From: an uncultured bacterium
GTDB taxonomy: Bacteria > Planctomycetota > Phycisphaerae > SM23-33 > FEN-1343
Assembly (NCBI GenBank): GCA_965372365.1
Contig: CBDVCA010000001.1
Location: forward strand, 5,810 to 69,809
Length of the DNA: 64,000 nt
Direction: 5' to 3'
Shown: positions 1 to 62,673 of the stretch, piece after piece
Position numbering within the stretch: position 1 is the stretch's first letter
Layout of the letters: each line of letters starts with the position of its first letter
Position numbers and translations under genes: made by a program
Notes under the pieces: model-generated
Databases searched by the model: none
What the model saw: the letters and a program-made list of their open reading frames with translations, nothing else
What the model was told of the DNA's origin: nothing

Positions 1-1204
1 CGGCGGAGGCGAATCCGTCGGCCATCCGCACCGCACCCAGCAGCATCCGCCCCGGGGGCGTGTCGGCCAGGGACAACTCCGCTGACGGGGCCGGCAGGCC
101 GGCTTCGGTGAACACTCGATGCAGGGTCTTGGCGTAGGGGTCGATTCGTCGAGCGATGACGGCGATCTGGTCGGCCGCGACGCCGGAGGCCAGCAGGCCC
201 TTGGCCCACCGCGCAATCGCCCGGCACTCGCTGTCGAGCCCGGCCGTTTCGACGGCGGCCAGCCCTTCGGGCCAGTCGGCGGCCGGCGCGATCGGCGCGA
301 ACAGCGTATCGAGCAGCCCGCCGGTGGGTCCGCGGTCGTCGGCAGCCGCGGCCGTCACATGCTGGCACTCGCCGCCGAAGGTCCGCTCGATCCGCTGCAA
401 CTGGCGCGAGGTCCATCGCCACAGCTTTTTCCGCTGGGGCTGGGCGTCATACGGCAGCGTAATCACCAGTCGCTCAAGGTCGGCCGACAGCAAGCGGAGA
501 ATTCCCAACTGCGTCGGCGTAAAATCGGTGAACCCGTCGGCCACCACCGCCGCCACGCCAGTCAGCGGCGAGCGGTCCATCGCCGCCAGATCGTCACGCG
601 CCTGCCACAGGCAGCCTTCTTCGTCGTACAGGGCCGACTCATGAAGATACTCTTGGTACGCTCGATAGATCGTCAGCAGGTCGCGATGCTTGCCCGCCCC
701 GCCGCCGCAGGCCGCGGCCAGGGCGTCGGGCTCGACGGCGGCCCGCTTCAGTTCGGCGACGGCGCGATCGACCGCCACGACCAATCCCGGCGTATCGGCC
801 ACCGCGCCGAGGGCTTCCAGTTCGCCGGCCGCGACCCGGTCGGCGATGATGCCTTTGAGCGCCATCCGCCGATGCACCGGCGAAATCCGCCCATACCCGG
901 CTCCAGCCGCCTCGGAGATGAGCCCCGCCAGGGACGTGAACGTCATCACCGCCGGCGCGACCAGCACCCCCGTCGAGCTCCGCTGGAGCAACCGCCGGCG
1001 AAGCTGCTGCACCGTCAGCCGATTCGGAGCCAGCAACACACATCCGGGGGCGGTCGGGTCGGTGAGGTAGTGCTCGTACAGGGCCAGAGCCGCGTCGGTC
1101 TTCCCCGAGCGAACCGGTCCCGTCACCACCACCGCGCCCGGTCGACAGGCGAGGATGGCCCCCGGCAGATCCCGATGATTCGATGCGTCGCCCATGGGAG
1201 CCAT
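1..1204 (-). CDS. AddB/RexB-like helicase-nuclease (UvrD-like N-terminal ATPase region); partial, 3' end lies outside the window
   Basis: My translation of the minus strand from ATG at 1204 is open to position 1 (not in the ORF track because no stop occurs). It starts MAPMGDASNHRDLPGAILACRPGAVVVTGPVRSGKTDAALALYEHYL, with Walker-A-like GPVRSGKT and helicase-nuclease-like downstream blocks. An in-frame TAA lies 90 nt upstream of the ATG. The + strand ORF 119..1303 is its GC-rich antisense artefact. Confidence 0.5.
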   Translation of the reverse strand, partial: MAPMGDASNHRDLPGAILACRPGAVVVTGPVRSGKTDAALALYEHYLTDPTAPGCVLLAPNRLTVQQLRRRLLQRSSTGVLVAPAVMTFTSLAGLISEAAGAGYGRISPVHRRMALKGIIADRVAAGELEALGAVADTPGLVVAVDRAVAELKRAAVEPDALAAACGGGAGKHRDLLTIYRAYQEYLHESALYDEEGCLWQARDDLAAMDRSPLTGVAAVVADGFTDFTPTQLGILRLLSADLERLVITLPYDAQPQRKKLWRWTSRQLQRIERTFGGECQHVTAAAADDRGPTGGLLDTLFAPIAPAADWPEGLAAVETAGLDSECRAIARWAKGLLASGVAADQIAVIARRIDPYAKTLHRVFTEAGLPAPSAELSLADTPPGRMLLGAVRMADGFASA

Positions 1205-1365
1205 TGTTACCGCGACGGCGGCCGGGCTCAAGAGGCTGTCGAGGCGAACCGGGGCAATCGGCCGGATTTCGCCGAACTTGCTGCTAGTTCCAACCGTTTA
1301 TAACCGATATAGATAAGCGCCCTAAGCCGGCAACGACGACCCGTAGATCATCGGTGGAGATTCAT

Positions 1366-3999
1366 ATGACGGTATCGCCCGCGGCCAACACCTACGAGCA
1401 ACTCGCCGAAGCCTTCGACGCAGCAGGCGTGGTTCGGCCCATGCGGATCGACCGCTATGAGGCCGGAGCCGAGCTGACCTACGCCGTCACCGGCGTCGCG
1501 CCGGCTGCCGAGGCGACCGTGCGACTGGTCATCGACAAGTTCGTCGGCGGCGGATTCGCCGGGCAGGTCTACCGGGTTATCGTCAAAGCCGTCGAAGGCG
1601 GACCCATCGCCGGGCTCAACGCCGGCGACAAGTACGCCATGAAGATCCTGATCCCCCCGTCGGGAGGGTCGATCCGCTTCCGAAACCTCATCTACTGGAT
1701 CGGGTTCCAGGCGCCGTTCTCGCTACAGGTCAACCCCGACGCCGCTCGCTCGGGCGCCTTGTGGCAGAAGTTCATCCGGCGGGCCGCGTCGATCGAATTC
1801 GGCTCCGAGCGAGCCGTGGTCGATATCATGGCCACGTTCGTCGATGAGCGGATGGGCAGTTGCGGGGAGCTCAGCGAATGGCTGGAAGGCCGCAATTGGA
1901 TCTTCGAAGTCGACGACAATCTCGCCGAACGCAAGAAATGGCGCGTCGGCGAGCCGATCGAGCAAGAGGGCCTCGGCGCCCCGGAGTATCGGGCGAAGAA
2001 GGATTTCATGGCCCGGATCGTCAAACTGTTCCACCAGGTGGGCGCCCCGGAGTTGGGTCGTCAGTACGAATGGTGGACCTGCAAGAGCCAGCCCAACTGC
2101 CTCAAGCGGCTCGACAGCGAAGGCGACCCGGCCGCGGGACTGACGGCCGTCGATTTTCGGGCTGGGCTGGCGCTGCTGTGCTGTCTACCGATGAGCCCCG
2201 GCGATATCAAACTGATCGGCGACGGCCTGTTCCAACGCGGCAGCCTCGTGCAGTTCGATCGCGGCAACGTCGACAAACTCCAAACCTACGTCGACGCCCA
2301 CGCCGACACCTTCGCCGACATGGGCGACGCACTCGACGAACTCAAACGCACCGAAGGCGCCTATCGCAACTCGATGATCGACGTCACGCACAACCACGTT
2401 CGCCTGCTGACCAGCGGGAAGTTGTGGGGTTCGATCTTTGACGCCGCGGTGACCAGTTGGCGCGTTCGGTCGATCGCCGACGACGCCTGCTGCGAGAAAC
2501 TCGGCCGCTCGCGAATCCGAACCGCCCTGTTCGCGATGACGGGCCTGTGCATCGCCATGGCCTCGCTGGCGAAGGTGGCCGGCGTGCTGGGGCTGATCGG
2601 CGCCGGCATCGCCGCAATGTTCAGCCGGCAAGGCGAACCGGCCATGACCTGGGCGACCCTCGCGGCCGGCGGACTCGTCGGCGGAATCGTACTGGGGGGC
2701 CTCGCTCGACTGATCCGAGCCGTATGGGGCCGGGCCGACCTGCGAAGCCATTACGGGCGGATGCTCACGTCGCCGGCGTACTTTCAGCGCGCCGCCAAGG
2801 CGCGAATCGCCGAGAACCTCATCACGTGGACCCGCCACGGACGCGTATCGCAAGAACGAGCCCTGCGCGTGAAGACGTCGGTCCTGTTCTACGCGGCCAA
2901 CCTTCCGCTGGCGGTGCTGCCGGCGGGGTTGCATCGGTTCTTCTCCGATGCGAAATTCGCCGCGTCCAAGCTGCATTACATCGTCACGCGACCGTTCAAA
3001 CTGTACTTCAACGCCGATGTCCGCGAGCAATGGATGCTGGAAATGCTCGATGACGGGCTCGCACATGGGATGGTCAGCGCCGACGAGGCCGAGACGATCC
3101 GTGGGCAGTTGAGCGAGCCGTTCATTCAGAAATACCTCAAGAGCCTCGCCGTCCACGTCTGCACGCTGCCGGTAACGCAGATCGTCTCGGTGGCCGTCGC
3201 GATCTTCTACTGGGACGGCGCCCTGTCGCCGAAACAGAACCTCGTGCGGGCCGTCGCCATCCTCGCGGCCTTCCAGGTGACGCCGATCTCCCCGGGCTCC
3301 ATCGTCCGCGGGCTGTACGTGGTGGCGATGGTCATCAAGGACCGCAATTACAAAGACTACAAAATCGCCGTGTGGATGGGCTTCTGGAAGTACATCGGAT
3401 ACCTGTCGTTCCCGATCCAGATGGCGTATCACTACCCGGCGATCGCCCGGTTCATGGCGGGCCGCTTCTCCACCGAGGCGGTGCACATTCTGCCGGTCTT
3501 CGGCGAGCACGGCGCCCTGGCCGAGCACGCGGTGTTCGACCTGTTCTACAACCGCCCCCTCACGATTCGCCGGCAGATGACCCTTCGCGCCGAGCAGCGA
3601 AAATCGCTCAAACCGCGACGGTGGCACATGCCGCTGATCGCCCTGGCGGCCTGGATCGTTGTGGCGCAGATGCCCGCCTGGATCGCCACACTCGGCGGCC
3701 GGCCGCTCGCCCAGCCGATCGTCGGAGGGTGGATGATGGCCCTGGCGGCGGTGCTCGGGGGGCTATGGACCTGCCGGCTCGCCGCTGGCGCATCCACCGG
3801 ATCGCGGATCACCATGGGCGCACTGTGCGGGCTGCTGATCGCCGCGTTCACCATCACAGCGAGCGTACTGTGGCCGATTGCCGGTGTGGCGAGTCTCTCC
3901 GAATCGATCGCCATCGCCCTCGTGCCGGCCTTCCTCTCAACACTGCTCGGGCTGCTGGCGGCGCTATCGACGGAGCTGTCGGCGACCGAAACGAACTGA
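1366..3999 (+). CDS. Large membrane protein: N-terminal protein-kinase-like domain fused to a polytopic (10 or more TM) C-terminal region; function unknown
   Basis: ORF track 1354(GTG)..3999; ATG at 1366 is preceded by GGTGGAG 6 nt upstream. Gly-rich loop plus lysine motif VIDKFVGGGFAGQVYRV...KYAMKIL, a KSQPNCL catalytic-loop-like segment without the canonical HRD Asp, and VDFRAG (DFG-like). After about aa 400 there are many long hydrophobic helices. Confidence 0.6.
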   Translation: MTVSPAANTYEQLAEAFDAAGVVRPMRIDRYEAGAELTYAVTGVAPAAEATVRLVIDKFVGGGFAGQVYRVIVKAVEGGPIAGLNAGDKYAMKILIPPSGGSIRFRNLIYWIGFQAPFSLQVNPDAARSGALWQKFIRRAASIEFGSERAVVDIMATFVDERMGSCGELSEWLEGRNWIFEVDDNLAERKKWRVGEPIEQEGLGAPEYRAKKDFMARIVKLFHQVGAPELGRQYEWWTCKSQPNCLKRLDSEGDPAAGLTAVDFRAGLALLCCLPMSPGDIKLIGDGLFQRGSLVQFDRGNVDKLQTYVDAHADTFADMGDALDELKRTEGAYRNSMIDVTHNHVRLLTSGKLWGSIFDAAVTSWRVRSIADDACCEKLGRSRIRTALFAMTGLCIAMASLAKVAGVLGLIGAGIAAMFSRQGEPAMTWATLAAGGLVGGIVLGGLARLIRAVWGRADLRSHYGRMLTSPAYFQRAAKARIAENLITWTRHGRVSQERALRVKTSVLFYAANLPLAVLPAGLHRFFSDAKFAASKLHYIVTRPFKLYFNADVREQWMLEMLDDGLAHGMVSADEAETIRGQLSEPFIQKYLKSLAVHVCTLPVTQIVSVAVAIFYWDGALSPKQNLVRAVAILAAFQVTPISPGSIVRGLYVVAMVIKDRNYKDYKIAVWMGFWKYIGYLSFPIQMAYHYPAIARFMAGRFSTEAVHILPVFGEHGALAEHAVFDLFYNRPLTIRRQMTLRAEQRKSLKPRRWHMPLIALAAWIVVAQMPAWIATLGGRPLAQPIVGGWMMALAAVLGGLWTCRLAAGASTGSRITMGALCGLLIAAFTITASVLWPIAGVASLSESIAIALVPAFLSTLLGLLAALSTELSATETN

Positions 4000-4103
4000 T
4001 GTCCTCCCCACGCACAGAAGCCATACGCTCGCGCGGACTATGCCCATGTGAGGTTCATCCGCGATTCGTGGGGAGTCCTTCCGATGAGCGCCCGCCGTTA
4101 CTA

Positions 4104-4264
4104 GTACTCTGTCACACCAAAACCTGCTAGGTCCGCGCCGTGCCGGATGGTCAGATGCAAGGAAGAAAGACGATGGCATATTCGAGGATATGCCGAGTTT
4201 TTCTGACGAAGCAGATGACCGTTCGCCACAAGCGGAGTTAGTAGGTTTTGGTGTGACAGAGTAC
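4104..4264 (+). mobile_element. MITE-a copy 1: 161-bp non-autonomous element with about 40-bp imperfect terminal inverted repeats (gtactctgtcacaccaaaacct...), flanked by TA (4102-4103 and 4265-4266)
   Basis: Seen in sequence: termini gtactctgtcacaccaaaacct / aggttttggtgtgacagagtac. Central core gatgcaaggaagaaagacgatggcatattcgaggatatgccgagtttttctgacgaagcagatgac is shared with the copy at 12562..12724. No ORF. Confidence 0.75.
4175..4202 (+). terminator. Terminator-like hairpin plus U-run inside MITE-a copy 1 (ggcatat-tcgagg-atatgcc gag ttttt)
   Basis: 7-bp stem and T5 run lying 176 nt downstream of the + strand kinase-like gene. The same motif is in copy 2 in the orientation of local transcription. 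The stem is AT-rich and weak. Confidence 0.3.
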
Positions 4265-4266
4265 TA

Positions 4267-4400
4267 GCCCCCCGCAGTGCGGGGGGTCGAGACGGGAGCG
4301 AACGGACAGAATGCGGATCGAGCTTTCGGTTTCCGCCGATCAGCGTTACATCCACAATAGGAATACCATCCGTCCCCATACCCCCTGCACTGCAGGGGGC
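4267..4400. mobile_element. Element Y: 134-bp TA-flanked element with 14-bp TIRs (gccccccgcagtgc / gcactgcagggggc), each terminus itself a GC hairpin; abuts MITE-a copy 1
   Basis: TA at 4265-4266 and 4401-4402. The outer flanks gccgttac (4094-4101) and gtaacggc (4403-4410) are reverse complements, implying a palindromic target gccgttacTAgtaacggc. Confidence 0.5.
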
Positions 4401-4511
4401 TAGTAACGGCAAGCTTCCGGCGGAGAGAACTCCCCGCTACTCCGTCATGGATCAGAAGAAACGCCGGCGACCCCCCCCAGCGGGGCGATCGCCGGCGGTG
4501 CGTGCGGTGTA

Positions 4512-6074
4512 TTAGAAGTCGGCCAGGCCGGACTCACCCGCTGCAACAGTCGATTTGGCCGTCGAAGCCGCAGGCGTCTGAGCGATCATGTGCCAAGGGT
4601 CGTCGCTGCCGGAGGAGGCCGGGACCGCTCCCGCCGCCGAATCGCTTCCGTCGACCAGTTGGGCCAGTAGGCGGACCTGCCCGGTCATCGCGACGGCCTG
4701 GGCGTCCAGTTCTTCAGCAGCCGAGGCCGACTCTTCGGCGTTAGCGGCATTGGCTTGGGTGCTCTGATCGAGTTGGGTTACGATCTCGTTGATCTGCTCG
4801 ATGCCTTGGGCCTGTTCGACCGTCGCATCGGAGATCTCGCCGATCAGGGTGTCCACTTTGCGAACACCGTCGGCGACGTCGGCCAACGACTCTCCCACCG
4901 ACCGGGTGATTTCCACGCCGCGATCGGCGTTGCGAGCGGACTTCTCGATCATCGAAGCGGTGTTCCTGGCCGCCTCGGCGCTTCGCTGAGCGAGGTTGCG
5001 AACTTCCTCGGCGACCACGGCGAACCCCTTGCCGGCCTCACCGGCCCGAGCGGCCTCGACCGCGGCGTTCAACGCCAATAGATTGGTCTGGAAGGCGATC
5101 TCATCGATCGTCTTGATAATCCGGCCGGTTTCGTCGGAGGACTTCTTGATGTCATCAATCGCGGTGGTCATCTTCGTCATCGCCTCGGCGCTCTGTTCGG
5201 CGGTGGAACTGACTTGGGCGGTAACTTCCTGGGCGAGCTTGGCGTTGTCTGCGTTCTGCTTGCATGACGCGGACATCTGCTCGGCGCCGGCCGACGCCTG
5301 CTCGAACGAGGCCGCCTGCTCGGAAGTCTGCTGGGCCAACGACTGGCTCGCTGTCGCCACTTGGCTGCTGGCCTCGCCGACCTGGGCGGAGCCCTCATTC
5401 AGGTTGGCAATGATCTTCCGCAGGGTCTTGGAGACGCCTCGGGCGATAATCGTCGCGATCACAACGCCTGTGACAATGGCGATGATCGATGCGACGGTCA
5501 CGATCAGCCGCGTCGACGACGCTTGGGCGAACACGTCGGCGTTGACCTGGTCGGCTGTCTCCTCTAGATGCGAGTTGGCGCCGTCCAGAAGCTTCTGGAG
5601 CTTGGCGAGCGTCGGCAGCGTCCGGGTCTGGAACGCATTCCTCGCCAGTTCCATGCCGTCAGCGCCTTGGGCGGCGTGCCCTTGAATTTCGATCGCCGAC
5701 TCATGCAGCGTCGCGTGATAACCTTCGACTTCCGACAGGATCGGCGCCAGAGCGGGCGCCAACGCCTCCGAATCCTTGCGATCGGGGCCGTAGAGCCACT
5801 TGCCCAGCGCGCACTTGTGATCGTCGGTCTGGACGTCCACCTGCGTAACCTCGTCGTCGGTGAACAGGGCGCTGACCTTGGCCGTCCAGTTGAGATGATC
5901 CACCTTCCTGCACAGCAATTCGGCATTCAACTTGCCTACGTCAATCGACGTAGTCACCCCACCTCGCATGCCATTGACGCCATAGACGGCGGCGCCGGCC
6001 AACACGACCAGCAGGGCGAGCACCGTAGCGAACCCCAGTCCGATCTTCTTCCCGACAGTTAGCTGCTTGAACAT
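4512..6074 (-). CDS. Methyl-accepting chemotaxis protein with an inter-TM CZB-like (zinc-binding) sensor motif, HAMP and MCP signalling domain
   Basis: Start at internal Met [10 protein letters not shown] with GAGAGG 6 nt upstream. TM1 [23 protein letters not shown]-like H-x2-W (DHLNW), 24 aa, CALGKW, 26 aa, HATLH. TM2 [25 protein letters not shown] core [38 protein letters not shown]. Confidence 0.85.
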
Positions 6075-6400
6075 ACTGGACCTCTCGAAATGCGAGACGC
6101 TGGGCGCGCCTCTGGGCAATTATGAATTCGCCGCATGGTTGTTCCGGACAGTCGCGGCGGCTGGCACAGTCGCATCAGAGAACCGGCGACAAGCCGACAG
6201 TAATGCCTGCATTCCGGGCAGGCGCAGGCTTGTCTTTGGCGAAACTACCGGGACGAGGTGAAACTCCTGGCTTCCAGATCACATATCATTCCAAGCTCCC
6301 CGCCGAGCGGGATGAGCCTATCTAGATAGCGACAGAATTGTCGTTCGACTTGAGCTGTACTCCGGCTCTGGAGCCATTCACGATTGAGATGCGGGAACCG

Positions 6401-6475
6401 AGCATGAGCGAGAACGAACGTGGCGCGGACGTAACAGCAGCCATAGCAACGCTATGGCGATACCGCAGCCGGCTT
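6401..6475 (+). repeat. Conserved hairpin module, copy A (GAGCGAGAACGAACGTGGCG...GACGTAACAGCAGCCATAGC-aac-GCTATGGCGATACC)
   Basis: Homologous to the copies at 11941..12030 and 12433..12505. Perfect 8-bp stem 6440..6458 with loop aac. Lies in the 480-bp MCP/pgpA intergenic region. Confidence 0.6.
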
Positions 6476-6557
6476 GGACCCATCGGTCAATCGCGCACCG
6501 CTCTAATAGAGATTTATTCCAACGGCAATGGCCCTACCCCCCATCCGGCGGCCCGCA

Positions 6558-7043
6558 CTAAACGACAAATCGCACGATCATCTGAGCGGCGATGTTGGCG
6601 TAGACGCCCGCGGCTAGATCGTCGCACAGTACACCCCATCCGGCGGGGAGTTTCTCCAACTGCCGCGCCGGCGTTGGTTTGAGGATATCAAATACGCGGA
6701 ACGCCACGAACGCCACACCCGCGGCTGTCAGGGCGCCGCCAACGCCGGCGGCCGGAAGAGCGATCAACGCCACCGCCTGTCCGGCCCATTCGTCGATCGT
6801 GACCTGGCCGGGATCTTTCTTGCCGAAGTGACGCTCAGCGAACGGCCCCAGGGCCACGCAGATGACGCTGCTGACCACCACCACCAAGACCATCGCGGCG
6901 TCAACCGCATACGAACGCTCGCCGTCGATCCGGCCGATCAGCAGATACAACGCGACCACCACCGCCGAGCCCCACGTGCCCGGTGCGATCGGCAGATACC
7001 CGGTCCCCAGGCCGGTCACCGCCAGCGTCTTGAGCCTATCCAC
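6558..7043 (-). CDS. pgpA: Phosphatidylglycerophosphatase A
   Basis: GTGYLPIAPGTWGS, TIDEWAGQ, FRVFDILKP...LPAGWGVLCDDLAAG motifs. Confidence 0.85.
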   Translation of the reverse strand: MDRLKTLAVTGLGTGYLPIAPGTWGSAVVVALYLLIGRIDGERSYAVDAAMVLVVVVSSVICVALGPFAERHFGKKDPGQVTIDEWAGQAVALIALPAAGVGGALTAAGVAFVAFRVFDILKPTPARQLEKLPAGWGVLCDDLAAGVYANIAAQMIVRFVV

Positions 7044-7695
7044 GGGTCGCCTCCACCAGCAACTTGCGAGCCCGACCCACGTAGGTGAGCCCGCTGAGAA
7101 TCGTGACGATGACGGTTCCCCACACCAGGGCGATCTTCAGAACCACCGCCCACGCCGCCTCCGGCAGCAGGGCGACCTGGAAGAGAACAACGCAGATCGC
7201 CGTACTCTGAACGGCCATCTTGATTTTACCCATCGACGTCGCCGGGAACGCCAGTCCCTGGCTCTCGCTAAAGCCGCGAATGCCCGAAACGATGAACTCC
7301 CGGGCGATCAGCACCACCACCATCCACGCCTGCACGGCGCTGGCCATACCGCCGTGGAGCCAGGGGGACATCGTCCGCTCCAGTTCGCTGGTGGCCTCGC
7401 CGCCGGGGAAGACGAAGTTGCTCCCCGAAAGCAGCGCGTAGGCGCCGCAGACGATGACCTTGTCGACGAACGGGTCGGCGATCCGCCCGAACGCGCTGGT
7501 TACGTTCCACTTGCGGGCCAGGTAGCCGTCGAGGATATCGGTAAGAGCCGCGATGATGAAGATCACGAACGCCGCCATCAGCAGCCCGACGTCGGGCTCT
7601 GGAACGATGTCGGCGACGGCCAGCAGCGAGAAGAAGACAATCGCCAGGACCAATCGGCCCAGCGTGATCTGGTTGGGCAATTTCGGATACACCAT
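7036..7695 (-). CDS. pgsA: CDP-diacylglycerol--glycerol-3-phosphate 3-phosphatidyltransferase
   Basis: CDP-alcohol phosphatidyltransferase motif DILDGYLARKWNVTSAFGRIADPFVDK. I chose Met MVYPKLPNQITLGR (7695) because GGTGGA lies 6 nt upstream; the track ORF extends to 7722. Overlaps pgpA by 8 nt. Confidence 0.85.
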   Translation of the reverse strand: MVYPKLPNQITLGRLVLAIVFFSLLAVADIVPEPDVGLLMAAFVIFIIAALTDILDGYLARKWNVTSAFGRIADPFVDKVIVCGAYALLSGSNFVFPGGEATSELERTMSPWLHGGMASAVQAWMVVVLIAREFIVSGIRGFSESQGLAFPATSMGKIKMAVQSTAICVVLFQVALLPEAAWAVVLKIALVWGTVIVTILSGLTYVGRARKLLVEATRG

Positions 7696-7725
7696 CGCTG
7701 TCCACCCATCAAGGGCCGCCAAGTC

Positions 7726-9096
7726 TTATCGGCGGCGGCGTTTGCGTCGCGAGGCCGCCTTCGAAGGCGTTACGATCAGGTCGTACTCGCTGTACTCGGC
7801 CACGGTCGCTCGCACAAAGGCTCCCGCCGGAGCCGGGTCGGTCAGGTAGCACACACTGTCGACGTCGGGCGCCTGTCCGGCGTGCCTGCCGACACAATAC
7901 CCGTTGGAATCGACGCCGTCGACCATTACCTCGATCGACTTTCCGATACGGGCGGCGTTGGCGGCCAGCGCGATCTCCTGCTGGGCGAGCATCAACTCCT
8001 CCACCCGCTTGGCGGCCACCTCCGGATCGACCGCCCCGTCCATCTTCGCGGCCGCCGTGCCGGGCTCGGGGGAGAAGGCGAACACCCCCATCGCGTCGAA
8101 GCGGGCCGCCTCCACAAACGCCAGCAACCGCCGATACTCGGCGTCGGTCTCGCCGGGGAACCCCACAATGAACGTCGTCCGAATCGTCATATCCTCAACG
8201 CGGCTGCGGAGCCGCTCGATGAGCCGCTCGGTTTCGGCCTCGCTCGTCCGGCGCCGCATTCGCTTCAGCACGCCGTCGGCCACATGCTGCAGCGGCACGT
8301 CGATGTACTTGACGACCTTCTCGCACTCGGCGATCGCGTCGATGATCTCGTCGGTCACCAGCGACGGATACGCGTACATCAGGCGGATCCACCGCACGCG
8401 ATCCAGCCCGTTGAGTTCGGCCAGCAGCCCGGCCAGGCCGGCGTCGTAGCCGATATCCCCGCCATAGCTGGTCGTATCCTGACCGATCAGATTCAATTCG
8501 ACCGCCCCGTCGGCGATCAACTCGGCCGCTTCGGCCATGATGCGGTCGATCGGCTTGGAGCGGAACGGGCCGCGAATAGCGGGGATGGTGCAGAAGCTGC
8601 ACCCTTGGCCGCAGCCCTCGCTGATACGCAGATACGCCGTATGCGCCGGCGTCAATCGCAGCCGCGACGTGTCGTCGCCGACCGCCGGACTGTCGGCGCT
8701 GCGCCGATACGCATCGACCGCCGTAACCTCCGTCGTCGCCGTCACCGCCTCGACCAGATCGGCGCGATTGTTCACCCCCACCACCGCGTCGACACCCGGC
8801 AAGGCCCGGCGTAACTCGTCGCCGTCCCGCTGGGCCATGCACCCGACGACGACCACCCGACGGACCGATCCGGCTTCCTTCATCGCCAGCGCTTCGGCGA
8901 TAACTTCGGTCGATTCGTCCCGCGCCGAGGCGAGAAACCCGCAGGTGTTCACGATAATCACGTTCGCTTGGTCCGCGTCGGCGCCCACGATGCAGCCGGC
9001 CTCGGCCAATAGGCCGAGCATCTTCTCGCTGTCGACGAGGTTCTTCGGACAGCCCAGCGAAATCAGGTTGACGATTGTCGGTTCTTCATTACTCAT
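7726..9096 (-). CDS. rimO: Ribosomal protein S12 methylthiotransferase (radical SAM MTTase plus TRAM domain)
   Basis: N-terminal ISLGCPKNLVDSE, radical-SAM CxxxCxxC (EGCGQGCSFCTIP), C-terminal TRAM-like region. Confidence 0.8.
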   Translation of the reverse strand: MSNEEPTIVNLISLGCPKNLVDSEKMLGLLAEAGCIVGADADQANVIIVNTCGFLASARDESTEVIAEALAMKEAGSVRRVVVVGCMAQRDGDELRRALPGVDAVVGVNNRADLVEAVTATTEVTAVDAYRRSADSPAVGDDTSRLRLTPAHTAYLRISEGCGQGCSFCTIPAIRGPFRSKPIDRIMAEAAELIADGAVELNLIGQDTTSYGGDIGYDAGLAGLLAELNGLDRVRWIRLMYAYPSLVTDEIIDAIAECEKVVKYIDVPLQHVADGVLKRMRRRTSEAETERLIERLRSRVEDMTIRTTFIVGFPGETDAEYRRLLAFVEAARFDAMGVFAFSPEPGTAAAKMDGAVDPEVAAKRVEELMLAQQEIALAANAARIGKSIEVMVDGVDSNGYCVGRHAGQAPDVDSVCYLTDPAPAGAFVRATVAEYSEYDLIVTPSKAASRRKRRRR

Positions 9097-9111
9097 AGAC
9101 CCGTTATTCTA

Positions 9112-9229
9112 CCAACTCGGCCCCGCCAAAGGAACCGGGCCGAGCCGACCGGATTTTCGCCTCGAGTTCCCACTCGGCCCCGCCAAAGGAACCGGGCCGA
9201 GCCGACCGGATTCTCCCCTTCGAGTTCCC
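9112..9229. repeat. Two tandem copies of a 58-59 bp unit, each with an 8-bp GC stem (ctcggccc...gggccgag) and 13-nt loop cgccaaaggaacc, in the divergent rimO/dus promoter region
   Basis: Units at about 9112..9171 and 9170..9229 are about 93% identical. Hairpins at 9117..9145 and 9173..9201. The minus ORF 9104..9487 translates the repeats (SARPGSFGGAE twice) and is not a gene. Confidence 0.7.
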
Positions 9230-9260
9230 CCCCCCTCCGCCGGCTGCTATACTATCGGCA

Positions 9261-10253
9261 ATGAGTGCTCCGATGAATGTCCAACCTCTCCGGATCGGCC
9301 CGATCGAATTGACCGCCCCGGCGGTGCTGGCCCCGCTGGCCGGGTATACCGATCTGTCGTACCGGCTCGTCTGCCGACGGCTGGGCGCCGAGTATTGCGC
9401 GACCGAGGTGACGCTGGACACGTCGATCAACCAAGGCGAAAAACTCCGCCGCAAGCTTATACAGATCCCCGACGAGGACCACCTCATCGCCGGTCAGATT
9501 ATGGGCCGCGAACCGGCGTCGGTGGCCGAGGCCGCCGGGCGCGTTGTGGCCATGGGCGCCGACGTGATCGATCTGAACTTCGCCTGCCCGGTCCGCAAGG
9601 CCCTTCGGCGCCGTCGCGGCGGGCACATGATGCGAGCGCCGCAAACCGCCATCGCCACGCTCAAAGCGGTCGCCGAGGAGGTCGATGTACCGCTGACGGT
9701 GAAACTTCGACGGAGCTTCGACGACGATGATACGACCCACGACGCGTTCTGGCGAATCGCCGAGGCGGCCTTCGACCTCGGATTCGCCGCCATCTGCGTC
9801 CACGGCCGCTCCGTCCGCGCCGGCTACGGCGGCCCGGCCGATTGGGCGTTCCTCGCGAGCGTCAAACGCCGCTTCGCCGACCGGGTCGTCATCGGATCCG
9901 GCGACCTCATGACCGCCGCCGACGGCGTCCGCATGCTGGTCGAAACCGGCGTCGACGGCGTCTCCTTCGCCCGCGGCGCCCTGGGCAACCCCTGGATCTT
10001 CGGCCAGTTCCGCCAACTCCTCGCCGGTCAACCGGCCGCGGCTCCGACCGTGGTCGAGCAGGCCCGGGTGCTCCGCGAGCATTACGCCATGTGCCTGGAG
10101 TTCTTCGGCCCGCGAAACGGCCCGGCCATGATGAACCGCTTCGGCATCCGCTACGCCAAGGTCCACCCCACCCCCCGTCCGGTCCGCACCGCCTTCATCC
10201 AGTCCGACTGCGGCAAGGACATCCCGAAAATCCTCGACACGTACTACGCGTAG
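9261..10253 (+). CDS. tRNA-dihydrouridine synthase (Dus family)
   Basis: LAPLAGYTDLSYR, GQIMGREP, DVIDLNFACPVRK motifs. TATACT lies 7 nt upstream of the ATG, which may indicate a leaderless start. Confidence 0.85.
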   Translation: MSAPMNVQPLRIGPIELTAPAVLAPLAGYTDLSYRLVCRRLGAEYCATEVTLDTSINQGEKLRRKLIQIPDEDHLIAGQIMGREPASVAEAAGRVVAMGADVIDLNFACPVRKALRRRRGGHMMRAPQTAIATLKAVAEEVDVPLTVKLRRSFDDDDTTHDAFWRIAEAAFDLGFAAICVHGRSVRAGYGGPADWAFLASVKRRFADRVVIGSGDLMTAADGVRMLVETGVDGVSFARGALGNPWIFGQFRQLLAGQPAAAPTVVEQARVLREHYAMCLEFFGPRNGPAMMNRFGIRYAKVHPTPRPVRTAFIQSDCGKDIPKILDTYYA

Positions 10254-10305
10254 GACTCTGTCCCATCGACAATGTGGAGTTGGCTGGCTTCCCGTTGAGG
10301 CGCCG

Positions 10306-11610
10306 TCATGGCCGCCGCGTCGGTCGACCGATAATCAGCCAGGCGTATTTGCCGCCGATGATGGACAGCAGGTTCGCTCCGGGGGGAACCAGGCGGATCA
10401 TCATCGCCACGATAGCGGCGACGACGCCGGCGATGAAGCCGCCGATGTGAGCCCAGTGAGCGGTGCCGGATTCCAACTTGGCGGCCACGTACAGCACGTC
10501 GAATGCAATATAGGCGCCCACGACGATGATGCCCGGCAACGAGAAGATCTTCTTGAACAGTCTGAACCCTGTGATGAGCCCCATCCGTAACCATACGACC
10601 ATATGGACTTTCTGGAGCGGGAACAGGATCAGGTACAACCCGCACATCCCCATGACGGCCCCGGAGGCGCCGAGCATGGGGATCGGCACGCCGCCGGAAA
10701 CCGAGGCCATGTGAGCCCACCCTGCGATCACCCCCAGCAACGGGTAGAGGATCAGCGTGGGAACATTGCCGATGACGCTGTTCACACGCGTACCGAACAC
10801 GATCAGGAACAGCATGTTGCCAGCCAAGTGCAGCAGCCCCCCGTGCAGGAATGCGTGGGTAATGAGCTGCAACGGCTGGAACTGACCGATCTCTCCCGAC
10901 AGTTCATAGGTCAGATCATCGACGGCCGCATCAAGCTCGGAACGATCGACAGTATCTGAGGTTCCGTCTGCGTACTCGACCTCCCCGACCGCCGGGTTTT
11001 CATCGAAGAACGCCTCGTCCACACCGGCGTCGATATAGGCCGCGACAGCGTATTCCCGGGCCGACATGGCGTCATTGTCCCAGAGCATCAAGTTCATTGC
11101 GGCCTTGCCGTCGCCGCCCATGTTGGCCGCGAAGAACCCCACGCTGGCCAAGACCGTAATCGCGAAGATCAGCCACGTAGCCACCGGCCGTTTGCCCCCG
11201 CCGGCCTCGGCGGCGATCGGATGCAGCCCTGTCGGGAACAACCAACTGAGCCAGCCGACAATGGTCTCGGCCCGGGTGTAGAGGTCGTCCAGATCGGGCT
11301 CGAATGATGTCATGACAGGCCGACCGCTGCTCGCCTTCACGCCGCAACGGACGCAGATCACAGCATTGGCCGCCAAGGTCTGATCGCAACTGGGGCATAT
11401 CGACCTGCCGCCGGAGGACCGGGAGACCTTGGCGGTGGGGATCGGAGTCGCCATGCGGGGATCGATCAACTCCTCGGCGAAATCGAGTTCAGCCTCCGGC
11501 GAGGGAATGGCCAGCGCCGCGCCGCACTTGGGGCACTTACCTTTCTTGCCGGCCTTGGAGTCGTCAACTTTGAAGTTGGCGCCGCATCCATTACACGCGA
11601 ATCGGATCAT
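10306..11610 (-). CDS. Rhomboid-family intramembrane serine protease with N-terminal zinc-ribbon domain
   Basis: Start MIRFACNGCGANFKVDDSKAGKKGKCPKCGA (MJ0042-type ribbon) with AAAGGG upstream. A second CxxC pair (CPSCDQ...CVRCG). Rhomboid GASGAVMG and AHIGGFIAG motifs. Confidence 0.8.
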   Translation of the reverse strand: MIRFACNGCGANFKVDDSKAGKKGKCPKCGAALAIPSPEAELDFAEELIDPRMATPIPTAKVSRSSGGRSICPSCDQTLAANAVICVRCGVKASSGRPVMTSFEPDLDDLYTRAETIVGWLSWLFPTGLHPIAAEAGGGKRPVATWLIFAITVLASVGFFAANMGGDGKAAMNLMLWDNDAMSAREYAVAAYIDAGVDEAFFDENPAVGEVEYADGTSDTVDRSELDAAVDDLTYELSGEIGQFQPLQLITHAFLHGGLLHLAGNMLFLIVFGTRVNSVIGNVPTLILYPLLGVIAGWAHMASVSGGVPIPMLGASGAVMGMCGLYLILFPLQKVHMVVWLRMGLITGFRLFKKIFSLPGIIVVGAYIAFDVLYVAAKLESGTAHWAHIGGFIAGVVAAIVAMMIRLVPPGANLLSIIGGKYAWLIIGRPTRRP

Positions 11611-11940
11611 CACCAGCCCTTTCGTGGTAGTTATATGCACAGGCCGCGATATGTCTGAGGCCCGGACCGGCGTAGGAGGCGAGCCCCCAAGCGATGCCCC
11701 AGTCAGAATGGAATCGGTCATCTGCCCGCGATGAAGACAATCTCACCCTCTCCGCAAGACGCCTGCCATGCATCGCCACACACCAGTGTACTCACCTCGC
11801 CCCCGCCGTCAACACCGCCGGGGGGACGGGCCTGCGCCGTCTCGATCCACGGACCGCTGTCGCGGCCCTGGTATTCTGTCCCTGGCATGAAGTCCAGCAT
11901 GAGATTATCTCCGCTTGGGCGCCGCGGGTTGCCCGAGCCA

Positions 11941-12030
11941 AGCGTGAGCGAGAACGAGCGTGGCGAGAACGAGCGTGGCGATGACGTTGAAGCAGCCATG
12001 GCAGTTCTGTGGCGATCGAAACGGACAATG
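11941..12030 (+). repeat. Conserved hairpin module, copy B (internal duplication of gagaacgagcgtggc; stem 11995..12013 kept by two G-U wobbles)
   Basis: gtgagcgagaacgagcgtggcg[agaacgagcgtggcg]atgacgttgaagcagccatggc-agtt-ctgtggcgatcgaaacggac. Lies in the roughly 500-bp rhomboid/nth intergenic region; no convincing CDS. Confidence 0.6.
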
Positions 12031-12401
12031 CCAGAAGGACTACCAGGCGCGCGATCCTCGCCATCGCATTCTTCATTGGCTCGGGGCCGCCGCGGTCGCG
12101 TCGGCGATGGAGTCACGACCGGTCCATCACCCCTCGCCCCCACGGGCACAGTTCCAACAGCCGACAATCGTCGCAACGCGGGCTCCTCGCCCGGCACACG
12201 GCTCGGCCGTGGGCGATCAGCAACAGGTGCATCGCGTACCGGTCCCGGGGGCGAATCAACGGGGTCAGCAAGTCGTGGGCCGCCTCGGCCGACGTTCCGG
12301 CAGGAAGAACCTCCAGGCGAATGGCGATGCGGAGAATGTGGGTGTCGACCGGAAAGACCGGCATACCGAAGCTGAACATCAACACGCAATAGGCGGTCTT
12401 A

Positions 12402-12559
12402 GAGCACTTTGCATAATAGATGTCGTGTTCAGGCGTAGGTGAGGACGAGGCTGGCAAGGACGTTGAAGCAGCCATAGCCTTTGCTATGGCGATGGAAACG
12501 GACGCCGCCAACCGATGCCGCAACCAGCATGAAGGCGACAGGTATTATGCAAAGTGCTC
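12402..12559. mobile_element. Element X: 158-bp TA-flanked element with perfect 17-bp TIRs (gagcactttgcataata / tattatgcaaagtgctc), carrying hairpin-module copy C
   Basis: TA at 12400-12401 and 12560-12561. Inserted in nth immediately next to MITE-a copy 2. Confidence 0.65.
12433..12505 (+). repeat. Conserved hairpin module, copy C (inside element X): gtaggtgaggacgaggctggcaaggacgttgaagcagccatagc-cttt-gctatggcgatggaaacggac
   Basis: Stem 12471..12490, perfect 8 bp with a 4-nt loop. A one-base loop-length difference from copy B shifts the reading frame while the nucleotide sequence stays conserved. Confidence 0.6.
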
Positions 12560-12561
12560 TA

Positions 12562-12724
12562 GTACCCTGTCCCAGCAATACTGTGGTGTTCTGACTTGCG
12601 GCGATGATGCGTCTGCTGCGTCAGAAAAGCTCGGCATATCAACCAATATGCCGTCACTTTTCTTCCTTACATCCACATCACCGGCGCGGCGTCATAACAC
12701 CACATTATCCCTGGGACAGAGTAC
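12562..12724 (-). mobile_element. MITE-a copy 2 (163 bp, inverted relative to copy 1), flanked by TA (12560-12561 and 12725-12726); inserted in nth
   Basis: Termini gtaccctgtcccag...ctgggacagagtac. Core (reverse complement) gatgtaaggaagaaaagtgacggcatattggttgatatgccgagcttttctgacgcagcag matches the copy 1 core. The TIR arms differ from copy 1 but stay mutually complementary. Confidence 0.75.
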
Positions 12725-13215
12725 TAGGGCCGACGCCCTTGAAACGGCATAGATACTCGAACGCCGCGGCGGGGGTCGCGTCGCCCAGAAAAGCCAAATC
12801 GATCGCTCCCCGCTCGGCGCGGATGTCGCGGAGGATCTTTCTGATTCGAGGCGCCTTCTGGCGTGACAAGCCGCTGACGCGAATGCATCGCTCGATGCGC
12901 CCGACCGGGACGTCGGCCGCGGCGTCCCAGGTGGACTCGGCGCCCGAGAACGATTCGACAAGCCGTCGGTATCCCGCTCGACTGTTCGCGCGGCTGGTCG
13001 ACTGCGACAAGATCGTCCCGATCAACACGTCGACCGGCGGACCGTGCGATTCCCACGAACGCCGACCGTACTGGTCGACCAAGCGGCAAAGGACATCGGC
13101 CAGAAGGCGACGGGATGTGAGGGCCGTGGGCATGGTGACGGTTCCGAGAATGCTTGCTCCGGCGAAGGGCGATCCAGGTGCCGACCGCCATCAAGCGCCG
13201 AAGACCGCTGCGCGT

Positions 13216-14739
13216 CTACTCAGATCGGACCTTTTCGGCGGCCATCCGGACGGCGCGGCGGCGGAGCCATTGCATGCGGAAGCTCAGAATACTGACGTAG
13301 TAGAAACCGACGGTGAAGATCACCAGGAATGGCGCGCCCATCAGCGACCGAGCGTCCAGCAAGGAGAAGACCGTGCAGACCGTCAGGTAGATCGCGAACA
13401 ACAGTTCCAGCCAGGGGACGATATCGAACTTCCTCGCCGTCGATGAAGGCTCGTCGGTCGCGTAGATATCGACGCCTTCGCCGACCTTGGGCGTGCGGAC
13501 GAACTCGCTCTGGCGGCCGAACAGGGCCTCCAGCACGGCCTTGGTGTTGGAGACGCACATCCCCACTCCCAGCGCCATCAGGAACGGTAGATACTTCAAC
13601 GTGGTTCGCCACGAACCGAACAGTTCCTGTTGACTGCACACGTAAAACGTGCTCGCCGACAGCGTGGCCAGCGAGAAAATGCTGATATCGAACATCATCC
13701 GCCACGGCGTTCCGTCGGCCAGCGGGACCGACTGAATGAACATCGCCGGAAACAGCATCATCACCAGGATCGCCATGTACAGGTGCACGGTAAAACTGGT
13801 CAGGTGGAACGTCGCCTCGATCTTGGCCTTCAACGGAGCGTTCGACATCCAAATTCGCGGCAACAGTTTCAACGCCGTCTGCGTGCCGCCCTTGGTCCAG
13901 CGATGCTGCTGGGCCTTGAACGCGTTGATGTCCGGGGGCAGTTCGGCCGGGGCGCCTAACTCCGGAAGAAAGATGAACGTCCAGCCGCGAAGTTGGGCGC
14001 GGTAGCTGAGATCCATGTCCTCGGTGAGCGTGTCGTGCTGCCAGCCGCCGGCGTCGGCGATGGCCTCGCGGCGCCAGGTTCCGGCGGTGCCGTTGAAACT
14101 CATGAACCGCCCGCTGCGGTTGCGGGCGACGTGCTCGATGACGAAATGGCCGTCGAGGAAGATCGCCTGCCCTCGCGTCAGGAGGCTGTCCTTGCGATTG
14201 AGGTGCTCCCACCGCGTCTGAACGACGCAGACCTTCGGATCGGTGAAATAATGAATGCTCCGCCGAAGGATGCTGGGCTCGGGAATGAAGTCGGCGTCGA
14301 AGATCGTTACGAACTCGCCGGTGGCGCTGGTGAGCCCGTTGGCCAGAGCGCCAGCCTTGAACCCGGTGCGATTGCCGCGGTGGATATACTGAATATCGAC
14401 GCCCGCGGCCCGCGCCTTCTCGACGGCCGCCGTTGCGATGACGACGGTTTCGTCGGTGCTGTCGTCGAGGACCTGTATCTGCATCTTCTGACGAGGATAA
14501 TCGATCTTGCAGGCCTCTTCGATGATCCTGCGTGCGACGTACTTCTCGTTGTACATCGGCAACTGCACCGTCACCAGCGGCAGTTCATCGAAATTGTTGC
14601 GAGGCACGCTGGGCCGATTGCGATGGCGGTAGTACAGGTAGACCAGCGACCAGCGGTGGAAGCCGAAGATCGAGACTGCAACCAGGACGACGGTATACAG
14701 TGTCATGAACAGCGCGTGTAGTAGTGCCGAAAAAGTCAT
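13216..14739 (-). CDS. Family 2 glycosyltransferase, processive type (cellulose synthase/PgaC/NodC-like), membrane-embedded
   Basis: DDSTDET, FDADF (DxD), QQHRW (QxxRW) motifs, with N- and C-terminal TM helices. Confidence 0.8.
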   Translation of the reverse strand: MTFSALLHALFMTLYTVVLVAVSIFGFHRWSLVYLYYRHRNRPSVPRNNFDELPLVTVQLPMYNEKYVARRIIEEACKIDYPRQKMQIQVLDDSTDETVVIATAAVEKARAAGVDIQYIHRGNRTGFKAGALANGLTSATGEFVTIFDADFIPEPSILRRSIHYFTDPKVCVVQTRWEHLNRKDSLLTRGQAIFLDGHFVIEHVARNRSGRFMSFNGTAGTWRREAIADAGGWQHDTLTEDMDLSYRAQLRGWTFIFLPELGAPAELPPDINAFKAQQHRWTKGGTQTALKLLPRIWMSNAPLKAKIEATFHLTSFTVHLYMAILVMMLFPAMFIQSVPLADGTPWRMMFDISIFSLATLSASTFYVCSQQELFGSWRTTLKYLPFLMALGVGMCVSNTKAVLEALFGRQSEFVRTPKVGEGVDIYATDEPSSTARKFDIVPWLELLFAIYLTVCTVFSLLDARSLMGAPFLVIFTVGFYYVSILSFRMQWLRRRAVRMAAEKVRSE

Positions 14740-45855: not shown

Positions 45856-46007
45856 TTTTCAGCTCCTTTCGCCGTCGCCCGACGGCTTCCACTGCAATCC
45901 GGGATCCGTGGTCAGATCCACATGCTTCTCTAGTAGGCGTCGGCGCCCGACGCCAACCCAACGCCGACCGCGCCGTTGACAGGCCGCGGCCGATACCGGG
46001 TGTAGCT

Positions 46008-49481: not shown

Positions 49482-49640
49482 ACACGCCGCGCATCCCCGA
49501 GGGTACACCGCCCCTAGCGACCCTAGGGTGAACGGGGCATTATGCCTCAACGAAAGCGACTGTCAAATGAAAAATTATGCGCCCGACGCACAAAATGCCT
49601 CCAGGCAAGGGACCACGGGCCAAACACGCAGGGCCGCAAT

Positions 49641-49756
49641 CCGCCGACAAACGACTGAACGCCGCCGAAAAACAGCTGAACGCTACCGACAAACGACTGC
49701 ACGCTACCGACAAACGACTGCACGCTACCGGCAAACGACTGCACGCTACCGAAAGG
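49641..49756. repeat. About 5.5 tandem copies of a 21-bp unit (c[tc][ag]ccg[ag]caaacgactg[ac]acg) in the tRNA-Gly/tRNA-Thr(GGU) spacer
   Basis: Seen in sequence. Shares the core caaacgac with the 15-bp repeat at 49284..49328. Confidence 0.8.
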
Positions 49757-49795
49757 GGCCGCAAGTTGCCAAAGGGGCCGCGGATCGATCCGAAC

Positions 49796-50503: not shown

Positions 50504-51058
50504 ATGCCCATCTCAACCCAAGACCGCCAAACCCTGCTGACGCTCGCCCGCTCATCGGTGACCCACGCCGTCACCGGCGATCCGCCGCCCCAAGCCCCCC
50601 CGCCGTCGGAGATCCTCACCGCCCAACGCGGCTGCTTCGTCACGCTCACCAACGCCGGCCGCCTTCGCGGCTGCATCGGAACCTTCAGCCCCCAAGGCCC
50701 CCTGGTCGCCATGATCCCCCAAATGGCGATCCACGCATCCCGGGATCCGCGATTCACCCACAACCCTATTACCGCACATGAGTTGCCGCAGATCCACGTG
50801 GAGGTCTCGGTCCTGAGCCCCTTAGAGCCCATCGACGACCCGCTCTCGCTAACCGTCGGCGTACACGGAATCTACATCACCCAAGGCCATCGCGGCGGCT
50901 GCTTCCTCCCCGAAGTCGCCACCGACCAGGGCTGGGACGCCGAGCAGTTCCTCACCCAATGCTGCGCCGGAAAAGCCGGCCTCGCACCCACCGCCTGGCA
51001 AGACCCCGCCACCGAAGTCCGCGTCTTCACCAGCGAGAAGTTCGGCGAAGGCGACTGA
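50504..51058 (+). CDS. AMMECR1-domain protein
   Basis: GCFVTLTNAGRLRGCIGTF motif. Confidence 0.8.
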   Translation: MPISTQDRQTLLTLARSSVTHAVTGDPPPQAPPPSEILTAQRGCFVTLTNAGRLRGCIGTFSPQGPLVAMIPQMAIHASRDPRFTHNPITAHELPQIHVEVSVLSPLEPIDDPLSLTVGVHGIYITQGHRGGCFLPEVATDQGWDAEQFLTQCCAGKAGLAPTAWQDPATEVRVFTSEKFGEGD

Positions 51059-51252
51059 TCTCGCCACGACCCGCGGCGGCCGGTCGCAACCAAACCAGGG
51101 GGGACAGACCGGATCGGCCGAACGGCCTGCCGCCCCTGTCGCGTGTCAAGCACACGTTTGTGGCTGCAAGGGTTACAGCCTATCTTCATGCCATTCGCTC
51201 CTGACCCCTTTCCCGCCAACGGCCTCAGAACGCCCTGAAAGGGCGAAGGCGT

Positions 51253-52092: not shown

Positions 52093-52182
52093 GAATCAGG
52101 CCGCATGGAACTCCAAGGGTACTCGACCGCTTGCGTGGGAACATGGCGTCTACCCTTATGGTTCACCGGTGATCCGGCAGTC

Positions 52183-53898: not shown

Positions 53899-53905
53899 GG
53901 ATCGT

Positions 53906-54223: not shown

Positions 54224-54269
54224 GCAGAAGATCCTCGTTGGGGCGTCGCCGCCCGCTCGTTGACGTCGG

Positions 54270-55007: not shown

Positions 55008-55072
55008 CGGAACAGCTCCATCGGTGAAGACCACGAACTGCGCCCGGCCGAACCGGCCCCGACGCCGTCGGA

Positions 55073-55981: not shown

Positions 55982-56105
55982 GAAACGAATCCACCGCCTT
56001 GTAATTAATCAGCGCCCATACTCAGAACGTGCGCCCCCGACCCGGCCTCCGTGCCGAGTCATGACGCGCGTACGCTGTCCCGGGCAGGATCCATGGAACA
56101 GCGTC

Positions 56106-62667: not shown

Positions 62668-62673
62668 TACGCG

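Follow-up and report, generated by a model that had tools for sequence, protein, structure and literature searches.

Bacterial miniature elements are shorter than 200 bp, carry terminal inverted repeats and end in 5'-TA-3' (PMC2229807). RUP of Streptococcus pneumoniae, which is attributed to IS630-Spn1, uses TA targets and is reported to target regions carrying IS elements, and both RUP and the Correia element of Neisseria are found between and within genes and beside other mobile elements (PMC2229807). REPs bear a GTAG or CGTC tag on one side, can form dimers with a spacing of 20-100 bp whose members fold together into one stem-loop, and in some families lie within palindromic targets (PMC3733652). 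Compensatory changes have been described in REPINs (PMC3116915). In the part of the literature reached by a targeted search, we found no paper devoted to such miniature elements in Phycisphaerae-like planctomycetes. Here we describe a site in DNA of an uncultured Phycisphaerae-like planctomycete, within a 64-kb stretch (64,000 nucleotides, hereafter the window), where two non-coding inverted-repeat elements, MITE-a and Y, lie side by side between two convergent genes.

The intergenic site reads gccgttac-TA-MITE-a (161 bp)-TA-Y (134 bp)-TA-gtaacggc, and deletion of MITE-a, Y and two of the TAs leaves a perfect 18-bp palindrome, gccgttacTAgtaacggc (Table 1). This anatomy had been proposed in a sequence-only reading of the same DNA, and we found its coordinates and lengths to be exact to the base. 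A repeat finder independently recovered three layers of inverted repeats, the outer arms measuring 18 nt, and in an inverted-repeat search Y together with its flanks gave 26-nt arms at 92%. By simple arithmetic, a perfect 8-bp flanking inverted repeat at a fixed position has a chance probability of about 1.5e-5, and the window contains just four further perfect palindromes that have 8-bp arms without a loop. When the window was scanned for TA-flanked 14-nt inverted repeats, five elements were returned (MITE-a, Y, MITE-b, MITE-a' and an 834-bp element), compared to about 0.6 in shuffled sequence. The anatomy of the site is exact and non-random.

IS630 prefers CTAG, and each of the three junction TAs at the MITE-a/Y site forms this tetranucleotide with its neighbours. 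The window holds 34 CTAG sites, where base composition predicts 219 and a Markov estimate 44, and five of the 34 are element junctions. The G+C content of the window is 62.4% overall; the stretch 4000-4399, which holds Y, has a G+C fraction of 0.575-0.58 against about 0.65 in its flanks.

Table 1. Features of the MITE-a/Y site, its neighbouring genes and the nth locus, in window coordinates.
Feature	Positions	Strand	Evidence
Upstream convergent gene, 877-aa conserved hypothetical membrane protein	1366-3999	+	ORF, homologues
Lineage-specific block with palindrome, MITE-a and Y, ~434 bp	4021-4454	.	missing from closest relative
Left outer-palindrome arm, gccgttac	4094-4101	.	sequence and inverted-repeat search
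Left-junction TA, reads CTAG with neighbours	4102-4103	.	sequence, TA-flanked repeat scan
MITE-a, 161 bp, non-coding, near-full-length palindrome, termini GTACTCTGTCACACC...	4104-4264	+	termini perfect over 22 nt, fold, second copy
MITE-a apex hairpin, T-run on both strands, terminator-like in both directions	4174-4195	both	terminator scan
TA common to MITE-a and Y, reads CTAG	4265-4266	.	sequence, TA-flanked repeat scan
Element Y, 134 bp, non-coding, hairpin ends, one occurrence	4267-4400	.	terminal pattern, repeats, fold
Y left terminus, GCCCCCCGCAGTGCGGGGGGT, includes 9+1+9 palindrome	4267-4287	.	terminal pattern, palindrome scan
Y right terminus, ACCCCCTGCACTGCAGGGGGC, inverted copy of left (19/21)	4380-4400	.	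terminal pattern, palindrome scan
Right-junction TA, reads CTAG	4401-4402	.	sequence
Right outer-palindrome arm, gtaacggc	4403-4410	.	sequence and inverted-repeat search
Hairpin then TTTCTTCTG on minus strand, likely the MCP gene's own terminator	4462-4497	-	inverted repeat, conserved in relative
Downstream convergent gene, methyl-accepting chemotaxis protein (MCP)	4512-6074	-	Pfam MCPsignal 1.6e-43, CZB 4e-12
Second TA-X-TA-X-TA site, splits endonuclease III gene	12400-12726	.	TA-flanked repeat scan, alignments
nth locus, first TA	12400-12401		
nth locus, MITE-b, 158 bp	12402-12559		
nth locus, second TA	12560-12561		
nth locus, MITE-a', 163 bp	12562-12724	reverse	
nth locus, third TA	12725-12726		

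MITE-a is a small non-coding unit with terminal inverted repeats, whose 36-nt arms match at 92% and are perfect over the outer 22 nt. Its terminus pattern was matched twice in the window, whereas shuffled sequences gave an expectation of 0.00, and its predicted RNA fold is a hairpin that takes in nearly the whole element (-106.7 kcal/mol, z = -15.8). Searching the window at low stringency, we identified a second copy of the family, MITE-a' (12562-12724), in the opposite orientation at an unrelated site. The two copies can be aligned over their full length, both have the termini GTACYCTGTC, and both contain a central hairpin (GGCATAT..ATATGCC) in which the stem is kept and the loop differs. The other terminal sequences among the elements of this study are GAGCACTTTGCATAATA, GCCCCCYGCAGTGC and ACCGTTCACAGTT.

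Insertion by the a-family can be read directly at the nth locus, where the sequence-only reading had remarked on a related arrangement and where we found the same TA-element-TA-element-TA layout. Here MITE-b and MITE-a' split the endonuclease III gene, leaving the HhH-GPD domain in an upstream ORF and EndIII_4Fe-2S in a downstream ORF. The insert (b, a' and two TAs) adds 325 bp, and nth is therefore frameshifted. Deletion of the insert in silico restored an uninterrupted 696-bp ORF of 231 aa, of which residues 9-222 aligned with endonuclease III 8a5c_A (E = 3.2e-39), the alignment passing straight through the GVGPKTA motif (GVGPKTAYCVLMF). Because removal of both elements with two TAs yields an intact Nth, the locus proves directly that a' and b inserted and duplicated TA, and it shows that a TA-X-TA-X-TA pattern can arise from two separate elements. 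The double insertion has inactivated the gene itself. The a-family and MITE-b are thus mobile and duplicate TA, and the termini, the second copy and the nth restoration together support the earlier identification of MITE-a as a TA-duplicating miniature inverted-repeat element. Two of the three junctions at nth read CTAG. We also considered a longer target duplication for the a-family, either the 8-bp TACTAGTA or the 4-bp CTAG, and rejected both, as the junctions of a', b and Z (an element in a close relative, described below) have only TA in common.

Y, too, is small and non-coding and has inverted repeats at its ends, a TA abutting both ends of its 21-nt inverted termini exactly (4265-4266 and 4401-4402). 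The two termini match at 19 of 21 positions when compared as inverted repeats and at 16 of 21 as direct repeats; the sequence-only reading had recognized them as inverted and had understated their length at 14 bp. It had also described each terminus as a GC hairpin, which agrees with our finding that each is a 9+1+9 palindrome; no other perfect 9-bp stems occur in the window. The terminal pattern was matched four times (two sites, each on both strands), compared to 0.07 expected from shuffles. The two mismatches between the termini fall at mirrored positions and are compensatory (C-G in one terminus, T-A in the other), so that both palindromes are preserved; we estimate that such placement is roughly a 1-in-57 coincidence. 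Because the differences are compensatory, structure may matter in Y, and this hints that structure rather than a protein-binding sequence is conserved in its termini. The segment 4260-4410, comprising Y and 7-10 flanking nucleotides, folds as one hairpin (z = -7.1 on the plus strand and -8.4 on the minus strand), and the only Rfam matches at the site were sub-threshold and of the microRNA-precursor type, reflecting this long hairpin.

In IS200/IS605-derived palindrome-associated elements, the hairpins at the two ends face the same (direct) way on one strand and are not inverted repeats of each other. We rejected Y as a member of this group, given its better inverted than direct match and the complementary loop bases of its two hairpins (G versus C).

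Searches for further copies of Y were negative throughout. There is no second copy in the 64-kb window. When a 20-mer from the Y terminus was searched against a genome collection, the matches listed were only generic single G+C hairpins from many phyla, some of them adjoining apparent 5S rRNA genes. A stricter TAG...T 23-mer gave 11 matches in JGI metagenomes, none with a Y-like body or a partner hairpin; these were hairpins in A+T-rich contexts, some within hairpin arrays. Neither the Y terminus nor the 18-bp palindrome was found in viral contigs, and plasmids contained no match to Y. A 103-aa ORF (4101-4412) crosses both Y and MITE-a, and we used it as a protein query for spurious ORFs on other copies of either element; none were found. 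As this ORF has no homologue among 5.8 billion proteins, we treated it as spurious. Y was therefore seen once across the window, the genome matches listed, the JGI metagenomes, the viral contigs, the plasmids and the protein search. The proposal of the sequence-only reading that Y is a mobile unit is weakened by this lack of recurrence in the collections searched, and not refuted. The mobility of Y is unproven and is proposed by analogy; on our analysis, the most likely reading is that Y belongs, as another miniature element, to the general kind represented by MITE-a. We additionally considered whether the window holds another REP-like family and rejected the only candidate, the one other CTAG-adjacent hairpin (45936-45954), which is an isolated intergenic hairpin.

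The elements described here resemble RUP and Correia in their length (134-163 bp), non-coding content, inverted termini, TA ends and whole-element hairpins, and in lying both between and within genes beside other mobile elements. They differ in being G+C-rich rather than A+T-rich, and Y differs further in being single-copy in our searches and in having self-palindromic termini. A comparison with plasmids found no sequence similarity between these elements and described ones.

Multi-MITE arrays are known in plants. Like nested or adjacent MITEs and RUP copies inside IS elements, both copies of the a-family adjoin another inverted-repeat element; they share a common TA with it, and the same end of a is involved in each case. 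Counts from the window give a chance of landing beside an existing element of about 0.5% per insertion for random TAs and about 10% if only CTAG sites are used, and two adjacent insertions out of two are unexpected at roughly the 1% level or below. The sequence-only reading had described the pattern as nesting or as a hot spot. Nesting does not hold, since the elements, unlike truly nested MITEs, abut at a common TA and neither lies inside the other. The hot spot fared better, as another TA-flanked element, Z, occupies the corresponding spacer of a close relative. Because both a copies abut another element and Z inserted independently, a hot-spot or end-seeking tendency is supported, but with only two cases, in which preference is inseparable from CTAG availability, it is not established.

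To follow the history of the spacer we compared it with that of the closest relative, represented by two contigs of one metagenome whose flanking proteins are 97% and 85% identical to those of the window. Both contigs end in the spacer and overlap by exactly 55 nt, a typical de Bruijn graph break; the two genes are therefore convergent neighbours in the relative too. Homology between the window and the relative stops right after the stop codon of the 877-aa gene and, on the other side, just past the MCP hairpin. The relative's spacer is about 20 nt long without Z (TCCTACCGGAGA-TA-CACCAAAAG) and is split at the TA by Z, an element of 417 bp with 32-34-nt terminal repeats. The relative lacks the whole block containing the palindrome, MITE-a and Y, so the block is lineage-specific. 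An empty palindrome, which the sequence-only reading had proposed to look for in related genomes, does not occur in this relative; the whole block around Y is missing, so there is no empty Y site there either. Direct repeats of CAGAAG border the block (4015-4020 and 4455-4460), where the relative has a single CAAAAG, which suggests that the block itself may have arrived as an insertion with CAGAAG as its target duplication. No significant terminal repeats were found at the ends of the block. In a more distant relative (69%), pgpA directly follows the 877-aa gene and the MCP gene is absent.

The nearest protein matches of the window bear the names Planctomycetota, Phycisphaerae or Sedimentisphaerales. 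The upstream gene had been called kinase-like, a label we could not support: its 877-aa product has no Pfam family and no match among solved structures. It has 2986 homologues at E<=1e-20, with source names Planctomycetota, Phycisphaerae and Sedimentisphaerales. For the MCP, a 100%-identical 520-aa protein was found in the protein collection.

Our preferred reading, to which we give a probability of about 0.55, is that two unrelated inverted-repeat elements, both non-coding, have piled up at the site and abut at a common TA in a rapidly changing, lineage-specific spacer. In this reading the a-family inserts at TA, Y is likely an element of the same kind, a DDE transposase of the IS630/Tc1-mariner type acts in trans, and the 8-bp arms are a remnant of the target. 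Such a transposase would move MITE-a and Y by cut-and-paste, using as its target the TA within CTAG and duplicating this TA on insertion. The second element to arrive would have used one of the TA copies made by the first, producing TA-a-TA-Y-TA; the product would be the same whichever of MITE-a and Y came first. The 8-bp arms would then be left over from a short palindrome with the target CTAG at its centre, rather than being a conserved terminator. The TA flanks of every element and the CTAG junctions at both loci resemble IS630/Tc1-mariner insertion. The locus differs in that the scanned parts of the window encode no such transposase: among 17 ORFs compared with Pfam, we found none of the IS630/Tc1-mariner type and none of the Y1/HUH (RAYT) type. 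These ORFs were the larger ones of 119-14739 and most of those in 50504-63990; gene-sized ORFs at 15-50 kb and several beyond 53.9 kb were outside the scan. Judging from a tRNA cluster and the ORF sizes, the ORFs of 15-50 kb look like ribosomal-protein and RNA-polymerase operons. A point against the preferred reading is that a perfect 18-bp palindrome is unlikely as a chance target unless the transposase prefers symmetric sites. Two further points speak against Y as a DDE-moved MITE, namely its single copy in our searches and its self-palindromic G+C hairpin termini with compensatory differences.

The palindromic target becomes unnecessary if the 8-bp arms belong to Y. The unit would then be a 154-bp element, Y' (gccgttacTAgcccc...ggggcTAgtaacggc), with 31-nt arms matching at 29/31, and MITE-a alone would have inserted, into the single CTAG of the left arm of Y'. 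Y' may in turn be the inner part of a longer imperfect palindrome. With MITE-a removed, the inverted repeat does run unbroken through the TA into the 8-bp arms, and weak complementarity appears further out at symmetric distances (GGGGAGTCCT-TCCG versus GGGGAGTTCTCTCCG, p ~0.02). A single long hairpin is the predicted fold of the reconstructed site (z = -2.2), the block is missing from the relative as one piece, and no rare perfect palindrome, of which the window has only the four others, has to be assumed. However, Y' is not flanked by its own target duplication and was found in no second copy, this history offers no reason for the abrupt drop, exactly 8 bp beyond the TA, from 29/31 to poor pairing, and the nth locus demonstrates that two separate elements give the same layout. 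We consider this history possible but rather unlikely. More doubtful still is that Y is a REP doublet similar to a REPIN, whose mobility, if it has any, would come from a RAYT-type HUH tyrosine transposase, with CTAG as the tag of the repeat and the palindrome as its preferred kind of target. Y does share the architecture of REPINs and REP dimers (Bertels and Rainey 2011; Di Nocera et al. 2013): two inverted palindromic G+C hairpins, 92-94 nt apart with a spacer of about 90 nt, fold together as one stem-loop, in line with the single-stem-loop dimers and palindromic targets already described (PMC3733652), and the compensatory difference between the termini is of the kind reported for REPINs (PMC3116915). 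But REP families are multi-copy, and no other such hairpin occurs in the 64 kb; the putative tag is CTAG on both sides rather than GTAG or CGTC (PMC3733652); and the TAs that flank Y exactly resemble those beside the TA-duplicating elements nearby. On its own, the 20-mer hairpin is generic, occurring as single hairpins in many phyla among the matches listed, and the 17 scanned ORFs, which cover little of 15-50 kb, include no Y1/HUH transposase.

The sequence-only reading had taken the palindrome for a typical bidirectional terminator of the convergent gene pair, and such a stem, if it existed before the elements, could have attracted both insertions. In favour of this, the palindrome is perfect and its neighbours are convergent genes, and regions of dyad symmetry are targets of some small bacterial elements (PMC2229807). 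However, it has no T-run on either side (its flanks are aagcttcc and gggcgctc), it was not called by the terminator scan, and 7-8 pairs with a CTAG loop form a weak stem. It is not conserved at the orthologous spacer of the closest relative, which measures about 20 nt without Z, while the hairpin and T-run beside the MCP gene are separate from it and conserved. The terminator part of this reading is contradicted, and we regard the reading as a whole as improbable. Within 3800-4700 the scan called only the MITE-a apex hairpin, on both strands, and the conserved hairpin is probably the terminator of the MCP gene; termination in the spacer is more plausibly assigned to these two predicted structures. 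An assembly artefact or a chance arrangement in a metagenome-derived contig has very little to recommend it. Closely related contigs do break inside repeats of the spacer, but the symmetry is far beyond chance, the same layout recurs at nth, where it cleanly interrupts a reading frame, and a flanking protein is on record on a 70,129-bp contig from three sources.

The elements at both loci are of a known general kind and leave the understanding of such elements unchanged, and Y is an orphan. With a, b, Z and possibly Y, they add families of miniature elements that had not been described before, from an uncultured Phycisphaerae-like planctomycete, and the spacer provides a clean example of one intergenic region rebuilt independently in two close lineages. 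Such repeats break metagenome assemblies exactly at the spacer and create spurious ORFs such as 4101-4412, and one pair has inactivated the DNA-repair gene nth. It is also conceivable, although we think it a long shot, either that the a-family seeks out other inverted-repeat elements and enters the TA at their tip or that Y is a hybrid, a doublet of REP-like hairpins that enters the centres of palindromes and duplicates TA. If true, the seeking of element-tip TAs by the a-family would be a way to build repeat arrays.

Several other repeats were observed in the window. The 834-bp element (51256-52089) has perfect 25-nt inverted ends that include TTAG/CTAA and carries an internally deleted remnant of a DDE_Tnp_1_4 transposase, the only transposase match among the scanned ORFs. 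A core of about 70 nt from MITE-b, with the hairpin GCCATAGC..GCTATGGC, recurs at 11958-12026 and at 6407-6460. Two tandem 51-nt hairpin units lie at 9112-9219, and a 21-bp tandem array is located among tRNA genes at 49623-49773.

The spacer between the 877-aa membrane protein gene and the convergent MCP gene contains a 434-bp block holding the palindrome, MITE-a and element Y, and this block is flanked by direct CAGAAG repeats. The closest relative lacks the block and has a single CAAAAG instead. The CAGAAG pair may be the target duplication of an older, larger insertion. The ends of the block gave no significant terminal repeats. In the closest relative, the equivalent spacer holds a different element, Z, with termini (ACCGTTCACAGTT...) of 32-34 nt at about 90%. 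The relative's two metagenome contigs, L001 and L040, share exactly 55 nt inside element Z, so the repeat broke the assembly there.

In a more distant relative (contig L003, 69% identical), pgpA directly follows the 877-aa gene after a 56-bp spacer (L003:3709-3764), making the MCP gene a lineage-specific addition between these two genes. The 877-aa protein has 2986 homologues at E<=1e-20 in metagenome bins of Planctomycetota type; it matched no Pfam family, and a search of solved structures by sequence returned no match.

Coordinates of the features (window positions unless a contig is named)
Feature	Position	Remark
877-aa membrane protein gene	1366-3999	
Direct CAGAAG repeats	4015-4020 and 4455-4460	edges of 434-bp block
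MITE-b core, ~70 nt	6407-6460, 11958-12026, 12433-12503	
Split endonuclease III (nth) gene	12113-13133	insert at 12400-12726
834-bp element	51253-52092	perfect 25-nt inverted ends
Element Z	L001:4811-4962 joined with L040:7861-8180	417 bp, TA-flanked

The nth gene is interrupted and frameshifted by a pair of adjoining miniature elements: the 158-bp b and the 163-bp a', which is a second MITE-a copy. The pair is inserted at the TA of CCT-AAG within the GVGPKTA helix-hairpin-helix motif. Removal of both restores a 231-aa protein that can be aligned to solved endonuclease III structures. The MITE-b core, with its hairpin GCCATAGC-N3-4-GCTATGGC, recurs at two further sites, both without the terminal repeats of b. 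Because reading frames differ between sites, the core looks conserved at the DNA level.

The inverted ends of the 834-bp element (TTAGCCCGGATATTTCACACAGCGT) enclose a DDE_Tnp_1_4 transposase remnant of 195 aa, covering profile positions 2-107 of 435. This element is an insertion sequence with an internal deletion.

The Y-type hairpin TAGCCCCCNGCAGTGCNGGGGGT was also found in A+T-rich DNA of unrelated organisms (JGI metagenome contigs L029, L031, L033 and L037), as one member of arrays of differing hairpins. Among the matches listed, an Anaerohalosphaeraceae MAG (L026:5043-5660) carries it twice within a repeat of 293-bp period. A Y-like body is present at none of these places.

Other repeats occur in the window. 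Just downstream of a radical-SAM gene, a 51-nt unit is present twice in tandem (9112-9219; 94% identical, 57-nt spacing), each unit with a hairpin CTCGGCCC...GGGCCGAG. Between tRNA-Thr and tRNA-Gly in the tRNA cluster (49623-49773), a 21-bp unit (CCGACAAACGACTGCACGCTA) is repeated in tandem, with six to seven copies.
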